Origin: Planctomycetota bacterium
Lineage (GTDB): Bacteria > Planctomycetota > SZUA-567 > H5-PLA8
NCBI GenBank assembly: GCA_038227875.1
Contig: JBBRPR010000002.1
Location: forward strand, 32,001 to 96,000
Direction of reading: 5' to 3'
DNA: 64,000 nucleotides
Shown: positions 16,192 to 52,661 of the stretch, piece by piece
Position numbering within the stretch: position 1 is the stretch's first letter
How the letters are laid out: the number at the start of each line of letters is the position of its first letter
Program-made: the position numbers and the translations under genes
The notes under the pieces: model-generated
What the model was told of the DNA's origin: nothing
Databases searched by the model: none
Seen by the model: the letters and a program-made list of their open reading frames with translations, nothing else

Positions 16192-16252
16192 TTTTAACCA
16201 TCAGGAAAATTTTCCTTAAGGTTCCGACCGTGTTGACCATGGTCAACAGGGT
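16192..16252. promoter_or_regulatory. Tandem pair of 26-bp ACC-N20-GGT palindromes preceded by TTTTA
   Basis: 16197 ACCATCAGGAAAATTTTCCTTAAGGT and 16227 ACCGTGTTGACCATGGTCAACAGGGT, about 100 bp upstream of the FeeM-like gene. Confidence 0.7.
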
Positions 16253-31384: not shown

Positions 31385-31410
31385 ACCTTAGGGACTATAG
31401 TCCCTAAGGT
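31385..31410. promoter_or_regulatory. Perfect 26-bp palindrome ACCTTAGGGACTATAGTCCCTAAGGT
   Basis: Exact self-complement in the divergent region upstream of cinA; a second perfect 18-bp palindrome lies at 31333-31350. Confidence 0.7.
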
Positions 31411-47413: not shown

Positions 47414-47616
47414 GAGGGATCCTCCTTAAGATTTGCTCCATGAGATAGAATAGCAAATGGACGCGCAATCCCTTCAATCTTATAATTCATGAATCGTAAG
47501 GAGGATGGAGAGTGACGTAAGCCCCGGTGTTCCTGAAGATGAGAAAAGAGATTGTCATTTGCGGCAATCGTGCCGGGTGACGATGATCTCGAGAATACCT
47601 CTGGAGTAATATATTC

Positions 47617-48762
47617 ATGTCGTCTACGGACGGTACACCGCTCCCTTCCGATCACTCGCAGGTACAATGGGAAGCCCTCTCGGGCATTATCAACTCTGCG
47701 ATGGATGCGATTATCAGCATCGACGAGCAGCAACGCATCACCATTTTCAATGCTGCGGCGGAGCGGATGTTTTTGTGCACGGCCAAAGACGCCATCGGCT
47801 CGCAACTGGATCGTTTTATTCCGCAGCGCTACCGCGCAGCGCATGGCGGCCATGTCCATGAATTTGCCCACACCGGCGCGACCAGCCGCGAAATGGGCCG
47901 GCTGGGAATCATCGTGGGGCTGCGTTCCGATGGCGTCGAGTTTCCGATCGAAGCGACGATCTCCAAGGTGGAAGTGGGCGGCCGGCACTACCTGAGCGCG
48001 ATCGTGCGCGACATCAGCGAGCGGAAAAGAGCGGAGAAAGAACGGGAGCAGCTGCAGGCGAAGGTGCTGCATCAGGAGAAACTGGCCGCGATCGGCTTGC
48101 TGGCCAGCGGGCTGGCTCACGAGGTCGGCAACCCACTGGCCTCCATTCAGGCCATCTGTGAAAATCTGGCGCGCAAAAGTTCCGAGCCCCAGACGACAGA
48201 AAAATGCCAGCGCATCCGCGAACAGGTCCGGAGGATTACCAGCATCGTCGGGCAACTGGTGAACTTCGCGCGGCCGGGGCCGGCCACCTGGCAGTTGGTG
48301 GATGTCAATGAAACCATCGAATCTTCACTGGGTATTGCCAAACTTTCCCGCACCGCAAAATCGTTGGAAATTACGGCCGATCTCGCTTCGGACTTGCCGC
48401 CCATCATGGCAATCAGCGATCAACTGGCGCAGGTGTTTCTGAATCTCTTTTTGAACGCGATCGACGCCAGCACCGAGGCGGGATGCAAGATCGTGATTGC
48501 GTCGCGAACGCTTTCGGAAGAGAGGATTGGAATTTCGATCTGCGATTCCGGTCATGGCATCGCACCCGATGACATGCCCAAGCTTTTTACTCCCTTCTTC
48601 ACCACCAAGGACGTCGGCAAAGGAACGGGATTGGGGTTGCACGTCTGTGAGGGTATAGTCAAGCGCCACGGCGGCGAGATTCGTGTAACATCGACTCCGG
48701 GTGACGGGACGACATTCCAGATTGAACTGCCGATCCGCAAGCAACCGCCCGTAAACTCCTGA
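47617..48762 (+). CDS. Cytoplasmic PAS sensor histidine kinase (NtrB-like)
   Basis: PAS FNAAAERMF; H-box AHEVGNPL; N-box QVFLNLFLNA; DSGHGI; PFFTTK..GTGLGL. Confidence 0.93.
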   Translation: MSSTDGTPLPSDHSQVQWEALSGIINSAMDAIISIDEQQRITIFNAAAERMFLCTAKDAIGSQLDRFIPQRYRAAHGGHVHEFAHTGATSREMGRLGIIVGLRSDGVEFPIEATISKVEVGGRHYLSAIVRDISERKRAEKEREQLQAKVLHQEKLAAIGLLASGLAHEVGNPLASIQAICENLARKSSEPQTTEKCQRIREQVRRITSIVGQLVNFARPGPATWQLVDVNETIESSLGIAKLSRTAKSLEITADLASDLPPIMAISDQLAQVFLNLFLNAIDASTEAGCKIVIASRTLSEERIGISICDSGHGIAPDDMPKLFTPFFTTKDVGKGTGLGLHVCEGIVKRHGGEIRVTSTPGDGTTFQIELPIRKQPPVNS

Positions 48763-48775
48763 AGGGAGCATCGAA

Positions 48776-50149
48776 TTGAGTGCTGTGCTGTTGGTCGAAG
48801 ACGAAGAAGATCTGCGCAAGGAATTGGCCGAAGCGCTGACGGATCTCGGCTATAAAGTCATTACTGCCGGCGATGGCATCTCGGCGCTGGATGAACTGCG
48901 CAAGCAGGACGTCCAGATTGTGCTCACCGACATCCGCATGCCCAAGATGGATGGGCTGGAATTGCTCCGCCGGGGCCGCGAAATCGCGCCGGACGCGTTC
49001 TTCATCGTGATGACTGCGTTTGGCTCGATGGACACCGCCATCGACGCGCTGCGCTCCGGGGCGACCGATTACCTGCTCAAACCCGTCACCATCGAAGACC
49101 TCGCATCGAAGGTCAACCGACTCGTCGAGACCGCCGCGCTACAGATCACCAATAAGATGCTCAGGCGCGATCTGGACCGGAAGCTCGGGTCGCTGGAAAT
49201 GATCGGCCAGAGCCCGGCGCTGGAAAAAGTCCGCCAGTTGATCCGCAAAGTCGCGCCGACGCGTTCGCCGGTGCTGATCACCGGCGAGTCGGGCACCGGC
49301 AAGGAACTGATTGCGCGCGCCATTCACGCACTGGCCGCGCCCAAGGGCGAACCGTTTGTCCCGGTGAATTGCGCCGCGATTCCGGAGCAGTTGCTGGAAT
49401 CGGAATTGTTCGGGCATCAGAAGGGCTCCTTCACCGGCGCCGTCGGCGATACGGACGGCATGTTCCGCTCTGCGCGCAAGGGCACGCTGTTTCTCGACGA
49501 AATCGGCGAAATGCCACTCTCGCTCCAGACCAAGCTGCTCCGCGTGCTCGAAGACAAGATGATCCATCCGGTGGGGTCGACGAAATTCATTCCGTTTGAG
49601 GCCCGCGTGGTGGCCGCGACGAATAAGAATCTCAAAGCCGAGATCGAGAAGAAGACCTTCCGTGAGGATCTCTATTACCGGCTGGCGGTGATGGAATTGT
49701 ACTCCCCGGCGTTGCGCGACCGGCAGGAGGATATTCCGCTGCTGGTCAATCATCTCCTGCGAAAATTCAACCGGGAGCTCCATCGCAACTACACCGGCGT
49801 CAACGACGCGGGCATGGATCTGCTGCAGCGGTCGGTCTGGAAGGGCAACATCCGCGAACTGCAGAACACGATCGAACGGGCCATGATTGTGGGCGACGAG
49901 CCGTTGCTGCGCGAGACGGATTTCACCGCGACCGGAGGTGAAGGCACTGCGGCGATGTTGACTCAGGCCACCGACTTGAAAGAAGCGATCACGCATTTTG
50001 AGCGCGCCCATGTCCAGCGCGTGTTGAACAATTGTGCGGGAGACAAGCGGAAGGCCGCGGAACTCCTGGGCATTTCGCTTTCGTCGCTGTACCGCCATCT
50101 CGGTGAAAAGGGCGATGCTCCCGCTGAAAAACCGGCGGCGGGAGTCTGA
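48776..50149 (+). CDS. Sigma-54-dependent response regulator (NtrC family)
   Basis: Receiver domain, GESGTGKE, ESELFGH, GSFTGA, FREDLYYRL and a Fis-type HTH. Confidence 0.95.
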   Translation: MSAVLLVEDEEDLRKELAEALTDLGYKVITAGDGISALDELRKQDVQIVLTDIRMPKMDGLELLRRGREIAPDAFFIVMTAFGSMDTAIDALRSGATDYLLKPVTIEDLASKVNRLVETAALQITNKMLRRDLDRKLGSLEMIGQSPALEKVRQLIRKVAPTRSPVLITGESGTGKELIARAIHALAAPKGEPFVPVNCAAIPEQLLESELFGHQKGSFTGAVGDTDGMFRSARKGTLFLDEIGEMPLSLQTKLLRVLEDKMIHPVGSTKFIPFEARVVAATNKNLKAEIEKKTFREDLYYRLAVMELYSPALRDRQEDIPLLVNHLLRKFNRELHRNYTGVNDAGMDLLQRSVWKGNIRELQNTIERAMIVGDEPLLRETDFTATGGEGTAAMLTQATDLKEAITHFERAHVQRVLNNCAGDKRKAAELLGISLSSLYRHLGEKGDAPAEKPAAGV

Positions 50150-50155
50150 CACTAG

Positions 50156-50357
50156 ACCTCCGGGCCAGCTGGCCCGAAGGGACACACCAGTACTACAGGC
50201 AAATTTGCCTGAGGGTCCGCTTCTATTCCGATGGGAAATTTTCCATTGGTTAAGGCACCCATTCCCCATGGTCACGTGGCGCCTTATTTTTTTAACCTGG
50301 GGACGGATTCGTCCCCAGGTGTCTAATTCTGACCATCCGGTAAATTTACCGGAAGGT
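50156..50357. repeat. Array of five 26-bp ACC-N20-GGT-type palindromes at a period of about 35 bp
   Basis: Units start at 50156, 50191, 50226, 50295 and 50332; each has 8-9 of 10 interior positions self-complementary. Confidence 0.75.
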
Positions 50358-50573
50358 ATGTCCGTTCTCGATTCTGCGAATTGCGAATTCGACGCGACCA
50401 GCGAAAGTCTTCTCAAAACTGAAGCGTACTTTCTCAAACGTGCGTGAATGCTCGTCCGAATAAACATTTTTTTTCCTCATAACTTAAATAATCAAAATGG
50501 TTTGCGAATTTCGACCGCGGCGCGCTGGCATGGCATGGCTCGTGTTTACCGTTGTATATAAAGGAGTCGACTC

Positions 50574-51050
50574 ATGCTGCGCGATCCGTTGGCCCATACA
50601 CCTCACCCGCATGTACTTTTGGCGGAAGACGATCCCGATCAGTCTGAAATGCTGAAAGATGTGCTGGAAAGCGAAGGTTATGAAGTCGACACCGCTTTCA
50701 GCGGCGATGCGGCGTGGCATAAGCTCAATTCTCGCGTCTACAACCTGGTCCTTCTCGACGTGCGCATGCCCGGGCTCAACGGTTCGGAAGTTCTCCGTCT
50801 CTACCGCAAGGCCGAAAAAGGAACTCATACGCCGGTCGTGATTGTTTCCGCCTTCGCCACGGAAGCGCAGGCGCGAGAGTACAGTCGGGATGGTGCAGAC
50901 CGCATTTATTCGAAACCGTATGAAATCGAGGAACTGCTCAAAGGCATTCGCGAATTGATCGCCAGAAGCTATACCGCGCCGGCCAAGGGCAATGGCGACG
51001 GCAATGTAGCTCCGCCGGCCTCGAATGGAGCAACGCCATGGAAACAGTGA
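50574..51050 (+). CDS. Single-domain response regulator
   Basis: VLLAEDD, LLDVRMPGLNG, VSA and KP; AAGGAG SD. Confidence 0.92.
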   Translation: MLRDPLAHTPHPHVLLAEDDPDQSEMLKDVLESEGYEVDTAFSGDAAWHKLNSRVYNLVLLDVRMPGLNGSEVLRLYRKAEKGTHTPVVIVSAFATEAQAREYSRDGADRIYSKPYEIEELLKGIRELIARSYTAPAKGNGDGNVAPPASNGATPWKQ

Positions 51051-52213
51051 CGACGCCCTGTCCCTCGCGCGAACCTGAATTTCATCGCAACGCGGTGATG
51101 GAATTCCTGGCCGCATTGCGCAATCCATTGACGTACTCCCCGTTGCTGAACACGGAAGTGATTTTTGGCTTCCTCTGGGGCTTGCCGATCCCGTTTTTCG
51201 TATTGCTGATTCACGCCTATGCGGCGGGCCTGCCGTGGACCTTCGCGGCGTTGTGGGACGTGGATGTGACCAACCCGCTCTACATTTTCTTCTTCCTTCA
51301 CCCGCTCCTCTTCGCCGCGGTCTTTGGCGCACTGGGTACGATGCGCGCGCACCGCGAACTGCGGATCCAGGGCCTGTTACAGCAAGTCAAGTTGCACTGC
51401 GAGGAACTGGAACGGGCCAACCACCGGCTGGAAGAACTGGATCGCCTGAAATCTGAATTTCTCGCCAATGTCACGCATGAATTGAAATCCCCGCTGGTTA
51501 CTTCACTGGGCTACACCGACCGCATGCTGATGGGGCATCTGGGCGACGTGAACGAGAAGCAGAAGAGGGGCTTGGAGGTCAGCAAGCGCAACCTCACCCG
51601 GCTGCGCACACTGATCGACGAGATCCTCGATTTCTCCAAGCTCGAATCCGGCATGGCGAATTTCCACATGGAGCCAACCACGCTCAACGCGGCGATTCAA
51701 GCGGCCGTGGAAAGCGCCTCGCTGAAGGCGCGCGATCGGCGGATCAACATCGACGTCGAAAGCCCTGCCGCGCCTGCCGCGGTACGGGGCGACGCGTCCA
51801 AACTGCTGCAACTGGTCGTCAATCTGCTCGACAACGCGATTAAATTTTCGCCCGAAGACAGCCGCATCCTGATCAAAGTTGAACCTATCGACGGCATGTG
51901 GCGTTTGAGTGTCATCGACAACGGCTGTGGAATTCCCGCTGAGAAAATGCCGCAACTCTTCCAGCGCTTCTTCCAGGTCGATGGTTCGCTGGGCCGCGTG
52001 CACGAAGGCTTCGGACTTGGACTCGTGATCGTGCGGAAAATCGTCGAAGGCCATGGCGGTAAAGTCTGGGTGGAAAGCCGCACCGGGTCGAACTCCGGAA
52101 CCAGCATCATCCTAGAATTACCAAAAGTGGATGCCTCTCTGCCGGGCTGTGCCAGCCCGGTCCTGCAGGATACGGAAAAGGAGGTGGCAAATGCCGCGAA
52201 TACTAATCACTGA
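51038..52213 (+). CDS. Membrane sensor histidine kinase
   Basis: Two TMs; FLANVTHELKSPL; NLLDNAIKF; DNGCGI; GFGLGL. Confidence 0.93.
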   Translation: METVTTPCPSREPEFHRNAVMEFLAALRNPLTYSPLLNTEVIFGFLWGLPIPFFVLLIHAYAAGLPWTFAALWDVDVTNPLYIFFFLHPLLFAAVFGALGTMRAHRELRIQGLLQQVKLHCEELERANHRLEELDRLKSEFLANVTHELKSPLVTSLGYTDRMLMGHLGDVNEKQKRGLEVSKRNLTRLRTLIDEILDFSKLESGMANFHMEPTTLNAAIQAAVESASLKARDRRINIDVESPAAPAAVRGDASKLLQLVVNLLDNAIKFSPEDSRILIKVEPIDGMWRLSVIDNGCGIPAEKMPQLFQRFFQVDGSLGRVHEGFGLGLVIVRKIVEGHGGKVWVESRTGSNSGTSIILELPKVDASLPGCASPVLQDTEKEVANAANTNH

Positions 52214-52661
52214 GGACCAGGAAGATCAGCGCGATCTCTACCACGACGTCTTATCGGATGCGGGTTACGAAGTGTGGGACGCGTGGAATGCCACGGAAGC
52301 GATGGAGCTGTTCCAACGCTATCATCCCGACATCGTGGTGCTTGATATCCAGATGCCCGGGATGGACGGGATCGAAGCGCTCGGGAAAATTGTGGCAAAG
52401 GACCGCCGCATTCCGGTGATTTTCTACAGCGCCTATCCCAACTACAAATCGAACTTCCTGACCTGGGCCGCGGATACCTTTGTGGTCAAGACCGGCAATC
52501 CGCTGGAACTGGTCTTCGCCGTGCGCGCTGTCTCTGAGGAGCACGGCATTGAAGTTCCGGCGCAGTGCAAGGAGTTGCTCAAGAACTACGAACCGCCGCT
52601 GGAAAAGCCCGTTGCGCCCAAGACCGATACCAGTGGCATGCCGTGGGGCAATCCGGAATAG
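52191..52661 (+). CDS. Single-domain response regulator
   Basis: ILITED, VVLDIQMPGMDG, YSAY and VVK; AGGAGG SD. Confidence 0.92.
   Translation: MPRILITEDQEDQRDLYHDVLSDAGYEVWDAWNATEAMELFQRYHPDIVVLDIQMPGMDGIEALGKIVAKDRRIPVIFYSAYPNYKSNFLTWAADTFVVKTGNPLELVFAVRAVSEEHGIEVPAQCKELLKNYEPPLEKPVAPKTDTSGMPWGNPE

Follow-up and report, generated by a model that had tools for sequence, protein, structure and literature searches.

In this study, we analysed a stretch of 64,000 nucleotides (nt) from the genome of a Planctomycetota bacterium (assembly GCA_038227875.1, contig JBBRPR010000002.1, positions 32,001 to 96,000; hereafter the window), in which five palindromic units stand in a row at 50156 to 50357. 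We read this array as a local cluster of a dispersed repeat family, and its units as solo copies of a putative cis-site of ParB-like proteins. The family has a strict 26-bp geometry, comprises about 280 or more strict palindromic units in the genome, and lies mainly outside genes. In addition, members of a ParB-like gene family carry a copy of the palindrome embedded in their own coding sequence, where it is conserved as DNA rather than as peptide, and some of these embedded copies are nearly identical to solo units. In our judgement there is about an even chance that the units are parS- or bisS-like loading (docking) sites of ParB-like paralogues, which have spread in the manner of repetitive extragenic palindromic (REP) sequences and bacterial interspersed mosaic elements (BIMEs).

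The sequence-only reading of the window described the units as ACC-N20-GGT palindromes whose interiors vary and yet remain self-complementary, and a scan of the whole assembly (9.34 Mb, 176 contigs, 59.6% G+C) agrees with this. Using an order-3 Markov simulation of the whole genome as control, we found 230 ACC-N20-GGT palindromes with at least 8 of 10 interior pairs versus 4 in the simulation, and 155 versus 0 with at least 9 of 10. Only the N20 spacer is enriched, the spacers N16-N19 and N21-N24 remaining at background with 1-19 occurrences versus 0-12 simulated, and among all 64 end triplets ACC came out on top with 230, the runner-up being AAA with 44. Likewise, an 11-bp stem with a 4-nt centre, 26 in total, occurs 195 times versus 3 in the simulation, and totals of 24, 25, 27 and 28 occur 3-14 times versus 0-4. 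The genome has 117 perfect 26-bp palindromes, versus none in a simulated 2.45 Mb. Of 215 units, 157 have a self-complementary centre of 4 nt, and in 124 this centre is AATT. Since the enrichment, the strict length and, within arrays, a spacing of 33-37 all hold genome-wide, the family is real.

The consensus of the family is TTTTG-ACC-YT-NNN-G-N-M-AA|TT-K-N-C-NNN-AR-GGT-CAAAA, and the position table of the 230 units gives the flanks as (A/T)TTnT(G/A)-ACC and GGT-(C/T)A. Within this frame the interiors are diverse: 283 units fall into 228 distinct sequences, 205 of them single-copy. Counting each sequence once, there are 57 perfect palindromes and 63 interiors of 8 nt with perfect pairing. The view that such an element is not the operator of a single transcription factor is upheld. 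Among 597 close pairs of units, which are not independent of each other, we counted 358 compensated column pairs, 634 one-arm differences and 85 uncompensated doubles. A covariation count on the alignment A1 carries no weight, because the rows of A1 were picked for palindromy and the count is therefore circular. Mismatches on the sense strand are G.U in 55 cases and A.C in 59. At stem positions 4-6 they are CA (41) and TG (39) rather than AC (18) and GT (16), with a left-hand pyrimidine and a right-hand purine. This points to a sequence preference of the half-site and not to pairing.

The commonest single subtype, ACCTTTGTGCC-(CAAA or TTTG)-GGCACAAAGGT, is found at 24 places (e.g. C5:187710, C8:165375 and C10:49722). 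Its centre is non-palindromic, and the subtype occurs in both orientations. One copy lies 107 nt upstream of a degenerate ParB-like paralogue on C10, and two copies have a common upstream TGTTACATGCG motif.

For the genomic placement, genes were called with a rough caller of our own (6048 genes, 82.9% coding), and the 24 copies of the ACCTTTGTGCC/GGCACAAAGGT subtype were set aside from 275 units, leaving 251. Of these, 226 lie outside genes: 148 in tandem spacers, 50 in convergent and 26 in divergent ones, and 2 at contig edges. Divergent spacers are depleted, holding 26 of 224 units versus 26% of the intergenic length (p 1.6e-7). For units in tandem spacers, the upstream stop is a median of 47 nt away and the next start a median of 98.5 nt. 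A run of at least four T within 10 nt on either side accompanies 41 of 283 units. Successive units on the same contig are less than 100 nt apart in 39 of 206 cases, with peaks at 33 (8 cases), 36 (3) and 37 (5). At the strict threshold there are 29 doublets and 4 triplets, whose neighbours carry different interiors and are joined by linkers of 4-11 nt, among which CAAAATG, CATTTTG and CAAAAGCC recur. A looser chain count (at least 10 of 13 pairs, any ends) gave 3224 positions versus about 2400 expected from simulation, many of them thus chance palindromes, and was used for linker motifs and spacing peaks only.

The link to ParB-like proteins came from an unbiased scan with the exact consensus pattern ACCYTNNNGCAAATTTGCNNNARGGT over one genome per species, 185,579 species genomes in all, and was thus found without prior bias. 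The scan gave 41 loci in very different phyla including archaea, and the free NNN positions were self-complementary in all 41, perfectly in 23, with one mismatch in 16 and with two in 2. Some of these loci may be ordinary hairpins, TTTT following in seven. The palindrome lies within a full ParB-like gene in at least 14 of the 41 loci and within a partial match in 7 more. The profile of this gene family matches Spo0J/ParB/Noc in the PDB (1vz0, E 2.4e-12) over the N-domain plus the helix-turn-helix (HTH), and a Foldseek search with an AlphaFold2 (AF2) model of one paralogue (pLDDT 82) returned ParB, Spo0J, Noc and KorB as top matches. Pfam ParB_N matches the cyanobacterial members, and the paralogues of this genome score below the Pfam cut-off. 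At E <= 1e-10 there are 9 paralogues here and 0-2 in each of 40 relatives, with none in 34; ParB-like matches of any kind in the genome number at most about 17. The paralogues are 59-72% identical with an invariant N-domain, and their variation is centred on the palindrome-coded linker and on the recognition helix, which differs among them. At DNA level their likeness is lost round the palindrome, over a stretch that starts about 25 nt upstream and ends about 80 nt downstream of it. Judged by eye, the GxxR motif is present as G-R-H-R in each of 8 paralogues. Fusions to DNA methyltransferases are frequent among the homologues.

Eight paralogues extend over the region of the palindrome, and all of them contain one of 26 bp (10-12 of 13 pairs), with the same codon position throughout and a different interior in each. 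In the AF2 model of one paralogue, the palindrome codons form a low-confidence disordered loop, residues 138-154, between a long helix and the HTH. As an independent sample, we collected 59 metagenome loci using N-terminal peptide patterns derived from the paralogue alignment A4, which worked where a single paralogue used as query of metagenome contigs found no relative. Forty of these homologues extend over the position; 32 of them pair at 10 or more of 13 places and 19 at 11 or more, against a background of 3.9e-4 per position. Furthermore, a gene annotated as ParB N-terminal-domain protein on a plasmid of Gloeocapsa sp. PCC 7428 (RefSeq) has a perfect palindrome at the same spot, the sole site with at least 10 of 13 pairs in 8.7 kb. 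It is noteworthy that the centre GCAAATTTGC is translated A-N-L in some genes and Q-I-C in others, and a CAATTG centre A-N-W or P-I-G. The codons GCA-AAT-TTG would be expected for 0.37% of A-N-L (77% G+C at third codon positions), and all 3 paralogues with A-N-L use them. Since the palindrome persists whichever of two frames it is read in, and is spelled with rare codons, it is the DNA rather than the peptide that is conserved.

Embedded and solo copies resemble each other closely in several cases. The embedded types of five paralogues (C36, C33, C14, C15 and C11) have solo copies at 0-2 differences. Those of C15 and C11 have about 20-25 solo copies each, with 10-35 nt of gene flank in common, a few of which are clear gene fragments; C22:111364-111488 looks like a decayed one. 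In some paralogues, CAAAAGCC, one of the array linkers, stands before the embedded palindrome as well. With N-domain distance controlled for, palindrome distance and recognition-helix distance have a partial correlation of 0.28, a value reached by 2 of 2000 permutations; as kin are not independent, this is a weak sign of read-out.

The genome also contains seven canonical parS-like sites (AATGTTCCACGTGGAACATT) at C3:120033, 120170 and 120212, C3:42949, C4:78750, C4:94276 and C40:9842. The first three are just upstream of a canonical parB-like gene (C3:119001-119963, weak ParB_N match). Of the four elsewhere, two have a C15-type unit 33-45 nt away and a third has a degenerate one; these neighbours are CGTGGTTGCAAATTTGCAACCACG-type palindromes with similar linker sequence. 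A GC-rich repeat, AACCCGCGAGGGGTGG...CCCGGCCC...GGGCCGGGTTGC, stands beside several ParB-like paralogues (L098:676-716 and 2362-2402; L095:3165-3250; L099:2400-2511), and in L098 it brackets the paralogue as an inverted pair, 95% identical over 41 nt.

The family is expanded in this lineage. With R1, a covariance model built from the 85 units of alignment A1, and 150 candidates scored per genome, we obtained 154 strand matches here at E <= 0.001; 7, 4, 2, 2, 1 and 1 in six relatives; and none in 34 of the 40. One identical or near-identical 26-mer is common to three relatives with non-homologous flanks. In the relatives G006, G012 and G003 the neighbours of the units include a resolvase, a primase-like open reading frame (ORF) and a DnaB-like ORF; the flanks are not homologous, and the small ORFs adjoining the G006 and G012 units are unrelated. 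In another phylum, genome G041 has about 40 R1 strand matches (about 20 loci) and 3 ParB-like paralogues, each with an embedded palindrome; because G041 was found through the pattern scan, its paralogue count is the sole independent observation there.

Three loci in relatives deserve separate mention. In G006, the ORF that contains a perfect family unit (L067, equal to L048:4016-4041) encodes a CHC2 primase zinc finger and stands beside a DnaB-like helicase ORF. This primase-type ORF partly matches the linker-plus-HTH portion of the ParB-like profile, which suggests that the palindrome-bearing module may occur in other protein architectures. In G003, a 177-bp repeat (L051:3506-3681 and L052:3885-4060), 91.5% identical across two contigs, ends just past a family unit, and the unit there thus belongs to a larger repeated segment. 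In the NtrC-orthologue locus of G015, L011:3044-3069 is a perfect 26-bp palindrome, CCCAATGTTCCACGTGGAACATTGGG, which is not a family member because its core is a canonical parS-like sequence.

Returning to the window, all five units were found at 50156, 50191, 50226, 50295 and 50332, as the sequence-only reading had them, with start-to-start steps of 35, 35, 69 and 37 read from the sequence. They occupy the spacer between an NtrC-type activator gene (48776-50149; Pfam domains RR, Sigma54_activat and HTH_8) and a response-regulator gene (50574-51050). The stop codon TGA of the former is at 50147-50149, and unit 1 starts 7 nt downstream. The features of the window are as follows.

50156..50181, no strand assigned: unit 1, ACCTCCGGGCCAGCTGGCCCGAAGGG, 11/13 pairs, R1 24.5 bits
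50191..50216, no strand assigned: unit 2, TACTACAGGCAAATTTGCCTGAGGGT, 9/13 pairs; right arm a good ACC-type half-site, outer left arm degenerate
50226..50251, no strand assigned: unit 3, TTCCGATGGGAAATTTTCCATTGGTT, 9/13 pairs, ends not ACC/GGT
50251..50294, plus strand: hairpin outside the family, between units 3 and 4, TAAGGCACC...GGCGCCTTA, with an inner CCATGG/CACGTG stem and then seven T
50295..50320, no strand assigned: unit 4, ACCTGGGGACGGATTCGTCCCCAGGT, 12/13 pairs, R1 31.3 bits
50332..50357, no strand assigned: unit 5, ACCATCCGGTAAATTTACCGGAAGGT, 12/13 pairs, R1 32.4 bits
14428..14453, no strand assigned: first unit of a doublet, ACCAGGGCACCAATTGGTGCCCAGGT, R1 34.4 bits
14464..14489, no strand assigned: second, weaker unit of that doublet, ACCCCCAAGCCCCGGGGCCTGAGGGT, R1 17.1 bits, spacing 36
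16197..16222, no strand assigned: first unit of a doublet, ACCATCAGGAAAATTTTCCTTAAGGT, R1 28.9 bits
16227..16252, no strand assigned: second unit of that doublet, ACCGTGTTGACCATGGTCAACAGGGT, R1 29.6 bits, spacing 30
31385..31410, no strand assigned: family unit, perfect palindrome, ACCTTAGGGACTATAGTCCCTAAGGT, R1 31.5 bits
52701..52726, no strand assigned: possible related unit between convergent genes, GCACGGTGGCCAACTGGCCACCGTGT, 11/13 pairs (manual count), ends not ACC, R1 17.8 bits, E 0.007
48776..50149, plus strand: NtrC-type sigma-54 activator gene, context only; the array follows its 3' end, and nothing links the protein to the units

Three units of the array are clear (50156, 50295 and 50332) and two are degenerate (50191 and 50226, whose 9/13 values come from a manual count on the sequence). 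The degenerate pair keeps 8 of 10 interior pairs, as the sequence-only reading had stated, but its outer ends are degenerate. R1 matched the clear units at 50154-50183, 50293-50322 and 50330-50359, gave 13.6 bits (E 0.15) at 50190-50218, and left 50226 unmatched at E <= 10. It also recovered every other place in the window where the same geometry had been noted (14428, 14464, 16197, 16227 and 31385). An inverted-repeat search returned all five array units as palindromes plus a sixth hairpin at 50251-50286, and unit 3 resembles the GGGAAAATTTTCCC class of paralogue C11 and its solo copies. Folded as single-stranded DNA, 50150-50365 forms separate hairpins (-45.6 kcal/mol, z -5.43), and 0 of 200 shuffles were as good. 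To judge by their form, the hairpin and T-run at 50251-50294 may terminate transcription of the NtrC-type gene, in which case units 1-3 would be co-transcribed with that gene and units 4-5 perhaps not.

The array is flanked by two two-component modules (47617-52661), one with a PAS histidine kinase and the NtrC-type regulator, the other with a receiver, a histidine kinase and another receiver. Among sequencing runs, one is the probable source, one from the same study contains 48% of the sampled words, and others contain small shares. Contigs of four runs, searched at 80% likeness, gave no indel, no contig of another strain bridging the array and no RNA cover of the spacer; their matches are mostly the conserved NtrC domain of other organisms and are uninformative on expression or polymorphism.

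How could a ParB-like family and such a palindrome be connected? A ParB-like dimer may dock on the palindrome with one HTH per 13-bp half-site, as in ParB/parS and BisD/bisS, and may then clamp and slide along the flanking DNA. The paralogues would have diverged jointly in recognition helix and embedded site, and positions that the protein does not read might stay symmetric through replication template-switching in quasi-palindromes, which would homogenise the arms. Binding, clamping and arm homogenisation are the steps that we infer here. Sites would build up where they do least harm, past stop codons and between convergent genes, and there they could pile into BIME-like arrays with short conserved linkers.

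Several observations weigh against the reading of the units as ParB-like loading sites. Read-out alone cannot explain the symmetry of 63 interiors and 228 units with at most 17 proteins, so that a further process, either arm homogenisation or selection for a hairpin or cruciform, has to be assumed. The site is 26 bp long and exceeds the 16-bp parS, and its placement after stop codons and in arrays is exactly the pattern of selfish REP-like elements. Judged by eye, the second motif site reads (A/L/V)-N-L-R-(R/Q)-R and lacks the Glu of ENxxR, which makes a cytidine triphosphate (CTP) switch uncertain, and no ParA-like ATPase was found among the neighbours of two paralogues and of the Gloeocapsa plasmid gene. 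Solo units show little relation to the genes in position: the 200 nt around them are free of ParB-like coding similarity in 278 of 283 cases (ACC-type units), and no clustering of units round paralogues was seen, the nearest usually being tens of kb off. Abundant ACC subfamilies (CTGTT-GCAAA, CTGGT-ACAAA, TTCAG-GCCAA and the 24-copy TTTGTGCC) are without a matching paralogue among those found. Among the relatives, G003, G006 and G012 have units and no paralogue at E <= 1e-10, and G001, G011 and G013 have paralogues and no R1 match. Finally, the palindrome is embedded in the paralogues of only 2 of 6 relatives, and two tandem paralogues of an archaeal genome have none.

As a rival explanation, the units might be purely selfish REP/BIME-like palindromes, spread by some enzyme or by replication errors, with the ParB-like linker as a tolerated landing place or conversion target and no action of the protein on the units. 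The intergenic bias (226 of 251), the depletion in divergent spacers and the median of 47 nt past the stop fit such an origin, as do the arrays with the short recurring linkers CAAAATG, CATTTTG and CAAAAGCC, the lineage-specific expansion (154 strand matches versus 0-7 in the 40 relatives) and the same 26-mer in the non-homologous flanks of three relatives. The likeness of paralogues breaks round the palindrome as though it had been swapped, and CAAAAGCC also stands before some embedded copies. However, the embedded palindrome is perfect and conserved where the pattern scan found no solo copy (one match in each cyanobacterial record, and the Gloeocapsa locus embedded only), and its one codon position across phyla in two reading frames means that it is selected within the gene rather than recently inserted. 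In addition, none of the 8 Y1_Tnp matches lies within 3.8 kb of a unit, and most distinct units (205 of 228) occur only once, which is not the picture left by recent bursts of master copies. We regard a purely selfish origin as unlikely. A more active part of the proteins seems to us improbable: they might nick or copy the palindromes in the manner of REP-associated tyrosine transposases (RAYTs), with their own hairpin in the gene, or solo units might be donor cassettes that rewrite the hypervariable linker. The gene-segment flanks of solo C15- and C11-type copies, the break in paralogue likeness around the palindrome, the nucleases that share the ParB N-domain fold (PDB 5k5d and 5k5a, 'ParB domain protein nuclease') and the expansion of both gene and unit copy numbers here and in G041 agree with it, but the catalysis is only putative, and decayed gene fragments such as C22:111364-111488 need no mobilisation. 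It is doubtful, though slightly less so, that we are dealing with a self-referential system, in which the ParB-like family keeps its own palindrome in its linker DNA, gene and site diversify or are rewritten together from solo cassettes, and the protein seeds or mobilises solo copies; if true, this would be a REP/RAYT-like partnership built on the ParB fold, extending from archaea to cyanobacterial plasmids.

The sequence-only reading offered two explanations, a structure-recognised element or a code of sites for paralogous dimeric regulators, and this interpretation is partly supported. As to structure, the units might be RNA hairpins in 3' untranslated regions that stabilise mRNA or terminate transcription, as REP sequences do in enterobacteria. 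Units close behind stops, strong predicted hairpins and the terminator-like hairpin with T-run that follows units 1-3 would suit this role. However, there is no strand bias (G.U 55 versus A.C 59 on the sense strand; the one subtype with an asymmetric loop in both orientations, 8 versus 5), at least four T within 10 nt are found at 41 of 283 units only, and the mismatches at stem positions 4-6 follow the half-site preference. A palindromic centre (157 of 215, AATT in 124) is not needed in a hairpin loop, nor would an RNA stabiliser require a fixed 26-bp length and fixed ends. We give the RNA role only a slim chance; a DNA cruciform or hairpin is still viable. As to the code, the 9 ParB-like paralogues with differing recognition helices and palindromes of their own are concrete candidates for the paralogous dimeric proteins, and the match of embedded to solo copies for five of them points the same way. 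A strict code, in which each interior is the operator of its own paralogous dimeric regulator with common ACC/GGT contacts, is nevertheless highly improbable, given 63 interiors and 228 units versus at most 17 ParB-like matches, and close units that differ by compensated changes (358 versus 85 uncompensated doubles in the 597 pairs).

Elements of described kinds were also considered as candidates and rejected. A REP hairpin has a GT(A/G)G-type tetranucleotide at its 5' foot, and a RAYT is a Y1 (IS200-like) gene flanked by the repeats. The 230-unit table has no GTAG foot (flanks TTTTG-ACC), the nearest unit to any of the 8 PF01797 matches is 3,803 nt away, and no unit was found within 6 kb of the Y1 gene at 6 of 7 places checked. 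A Y1 gene at C3:47816-48160 (locus L004, C3:47244-48321) is flanked by a hairpin, CCAGGGGC-N3-GCCCCTGG, at 47489, 47731 and 48303, and is a candidate for a true REP/RAYT pair unrelated to the 26-bp family. Intrinsic terminators do not account for the family, with a T-run by 41 of 283 units only and the hairpin at about 50251-50294 as the sole terminator-like site in 50050-50650. A CRISPR array does not fit, as adjacent units differ and the 'spacers' are linkers of 4-11 nt. Rfam, searched with 49000-52000 at E <= 10, returned three chance-level matches, none better than E 0.39. An NtrC operator is rejected because none of 6 orthologous loci from genomes of the same family has units within about 1.5 kb and the units occur genome-wide. 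Crossover sites of serine invertases and resolvases are palindromes of 26-28 bp with an AT centre beside the resolvase gene; here, two of the 3 PF00239 matches are on unit-free contigs and the third is 14.7 kb from the nearest unit, which rejects a hix-like site. In G006, a resolvase gene and one unit are about 360 nt apart.

Orphan ParB-like proteins abound on chromosomes, plasmids and phages, and fusions to DNA methyltransferases are frequent among them, according to a recent survey (10.1101/2025.10.10.680097). Hardly any of them has a known DNA site. Should the embedded palindrome prove to be the loading site, then the gene sequences themselves could reveal the sites of an entire subfamily. 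The nine diverged pairs of protein and site in one genome would then be a natural set for studying how ParB-type specificity evolves, and the abundant intergenic palindromes would gain one more class, for which the candidate cognate protein is not a RAYT. Genome annotation gains an explanation for hundreds of perfect palindromes that were otherwise puzzling in this lineage, and for about 20 further loci in the unrelated G041.

The initial impression that the units are not a described element agrees with the literature that we searched (supplements excluded), in which we met with no account of the repeat family or of ParB-like genes that contain a palindrome; 'palindrom' is also absent from the main text of the orphan-ParB survey (10.1101/2025.10.10.680097). 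The precedent for long intragenic palindromes as sites of ParB-like proteins is BisD-bisS. As described in the sections of PMC12409273 at hand, BisD of ICEclc in Pseudomonas putida is an orphan ParB-like CTP clamp with a long, unstructured linker, which loads at bisS and then slides; bisS is a palindrome with 11-bp arms inside two genes (inrR and ssb), and the nucleotide-binding motifs of ParB proteins are named GxxR and ENxxR. Going by the same sections, the two systems share orphan ParB-like proteins with N-domain and HTH and, among the neighbours covered here, without a ParA partner, and long palindromic intragenic sites. In contrast, bisS has 2-3 copies on one mobile element and in other genes, whereas here one copy lies in the ParB-like gene itself at a fixed codon. 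Moreover, here there are 9 paralogues and about 280 chromosomal solo sites in arrays with variable interiors, and binding is demonstrated for BisD whereas ours is a case from sequence alone.

The ParB-parS systems, including Noc with its binding site NBS and the Bsr centromeres, are similar in having a dimeric HTH protein of the ParB fold, palindromic sites and symmetric variants that go with different paralogues. They differ from the present family in site length (16 bp versus 26 here), in number (about 1-25 sites versus hundreds) and in that our units do not cluster near one locus, that their interiors outnumber the proteins and that the genome has a separate canonical AATGTTCCACGTGGAACATT system. 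Bacillus subtilis has a parS copy within its parB gene. The Bsr centromere families of Burkholderiales are parS specificity variants, according to the part of PMC5450999 that we could use. With REP, BIME and REPIN sequences the units share the form of short extragenic palindromes after genes, arrays with short linkers, copies in the hundreds and a lineage expansion; unlike REP and REPIN sequences, they are symmetric through the centre, 205 of 228 are single-copy, and a ParB-like gene holds a unit in its reading frame. Template switching at quasi-palindromes could homogenise the arms of a short inverted repeat, to go by the accessible text of PMC7202029 and PMC8604942, and would be a selection-free route by which variable interiors stay self-complementary; it is a mutational process rather than an element, and leaves the fixed length, ends and centre and the link to a gene family unexplained. 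Taken together, neither ParB-type proteins with palindromic sites nor REP/BIME-like arrays are of a new kind, and it is their combination that looks new.

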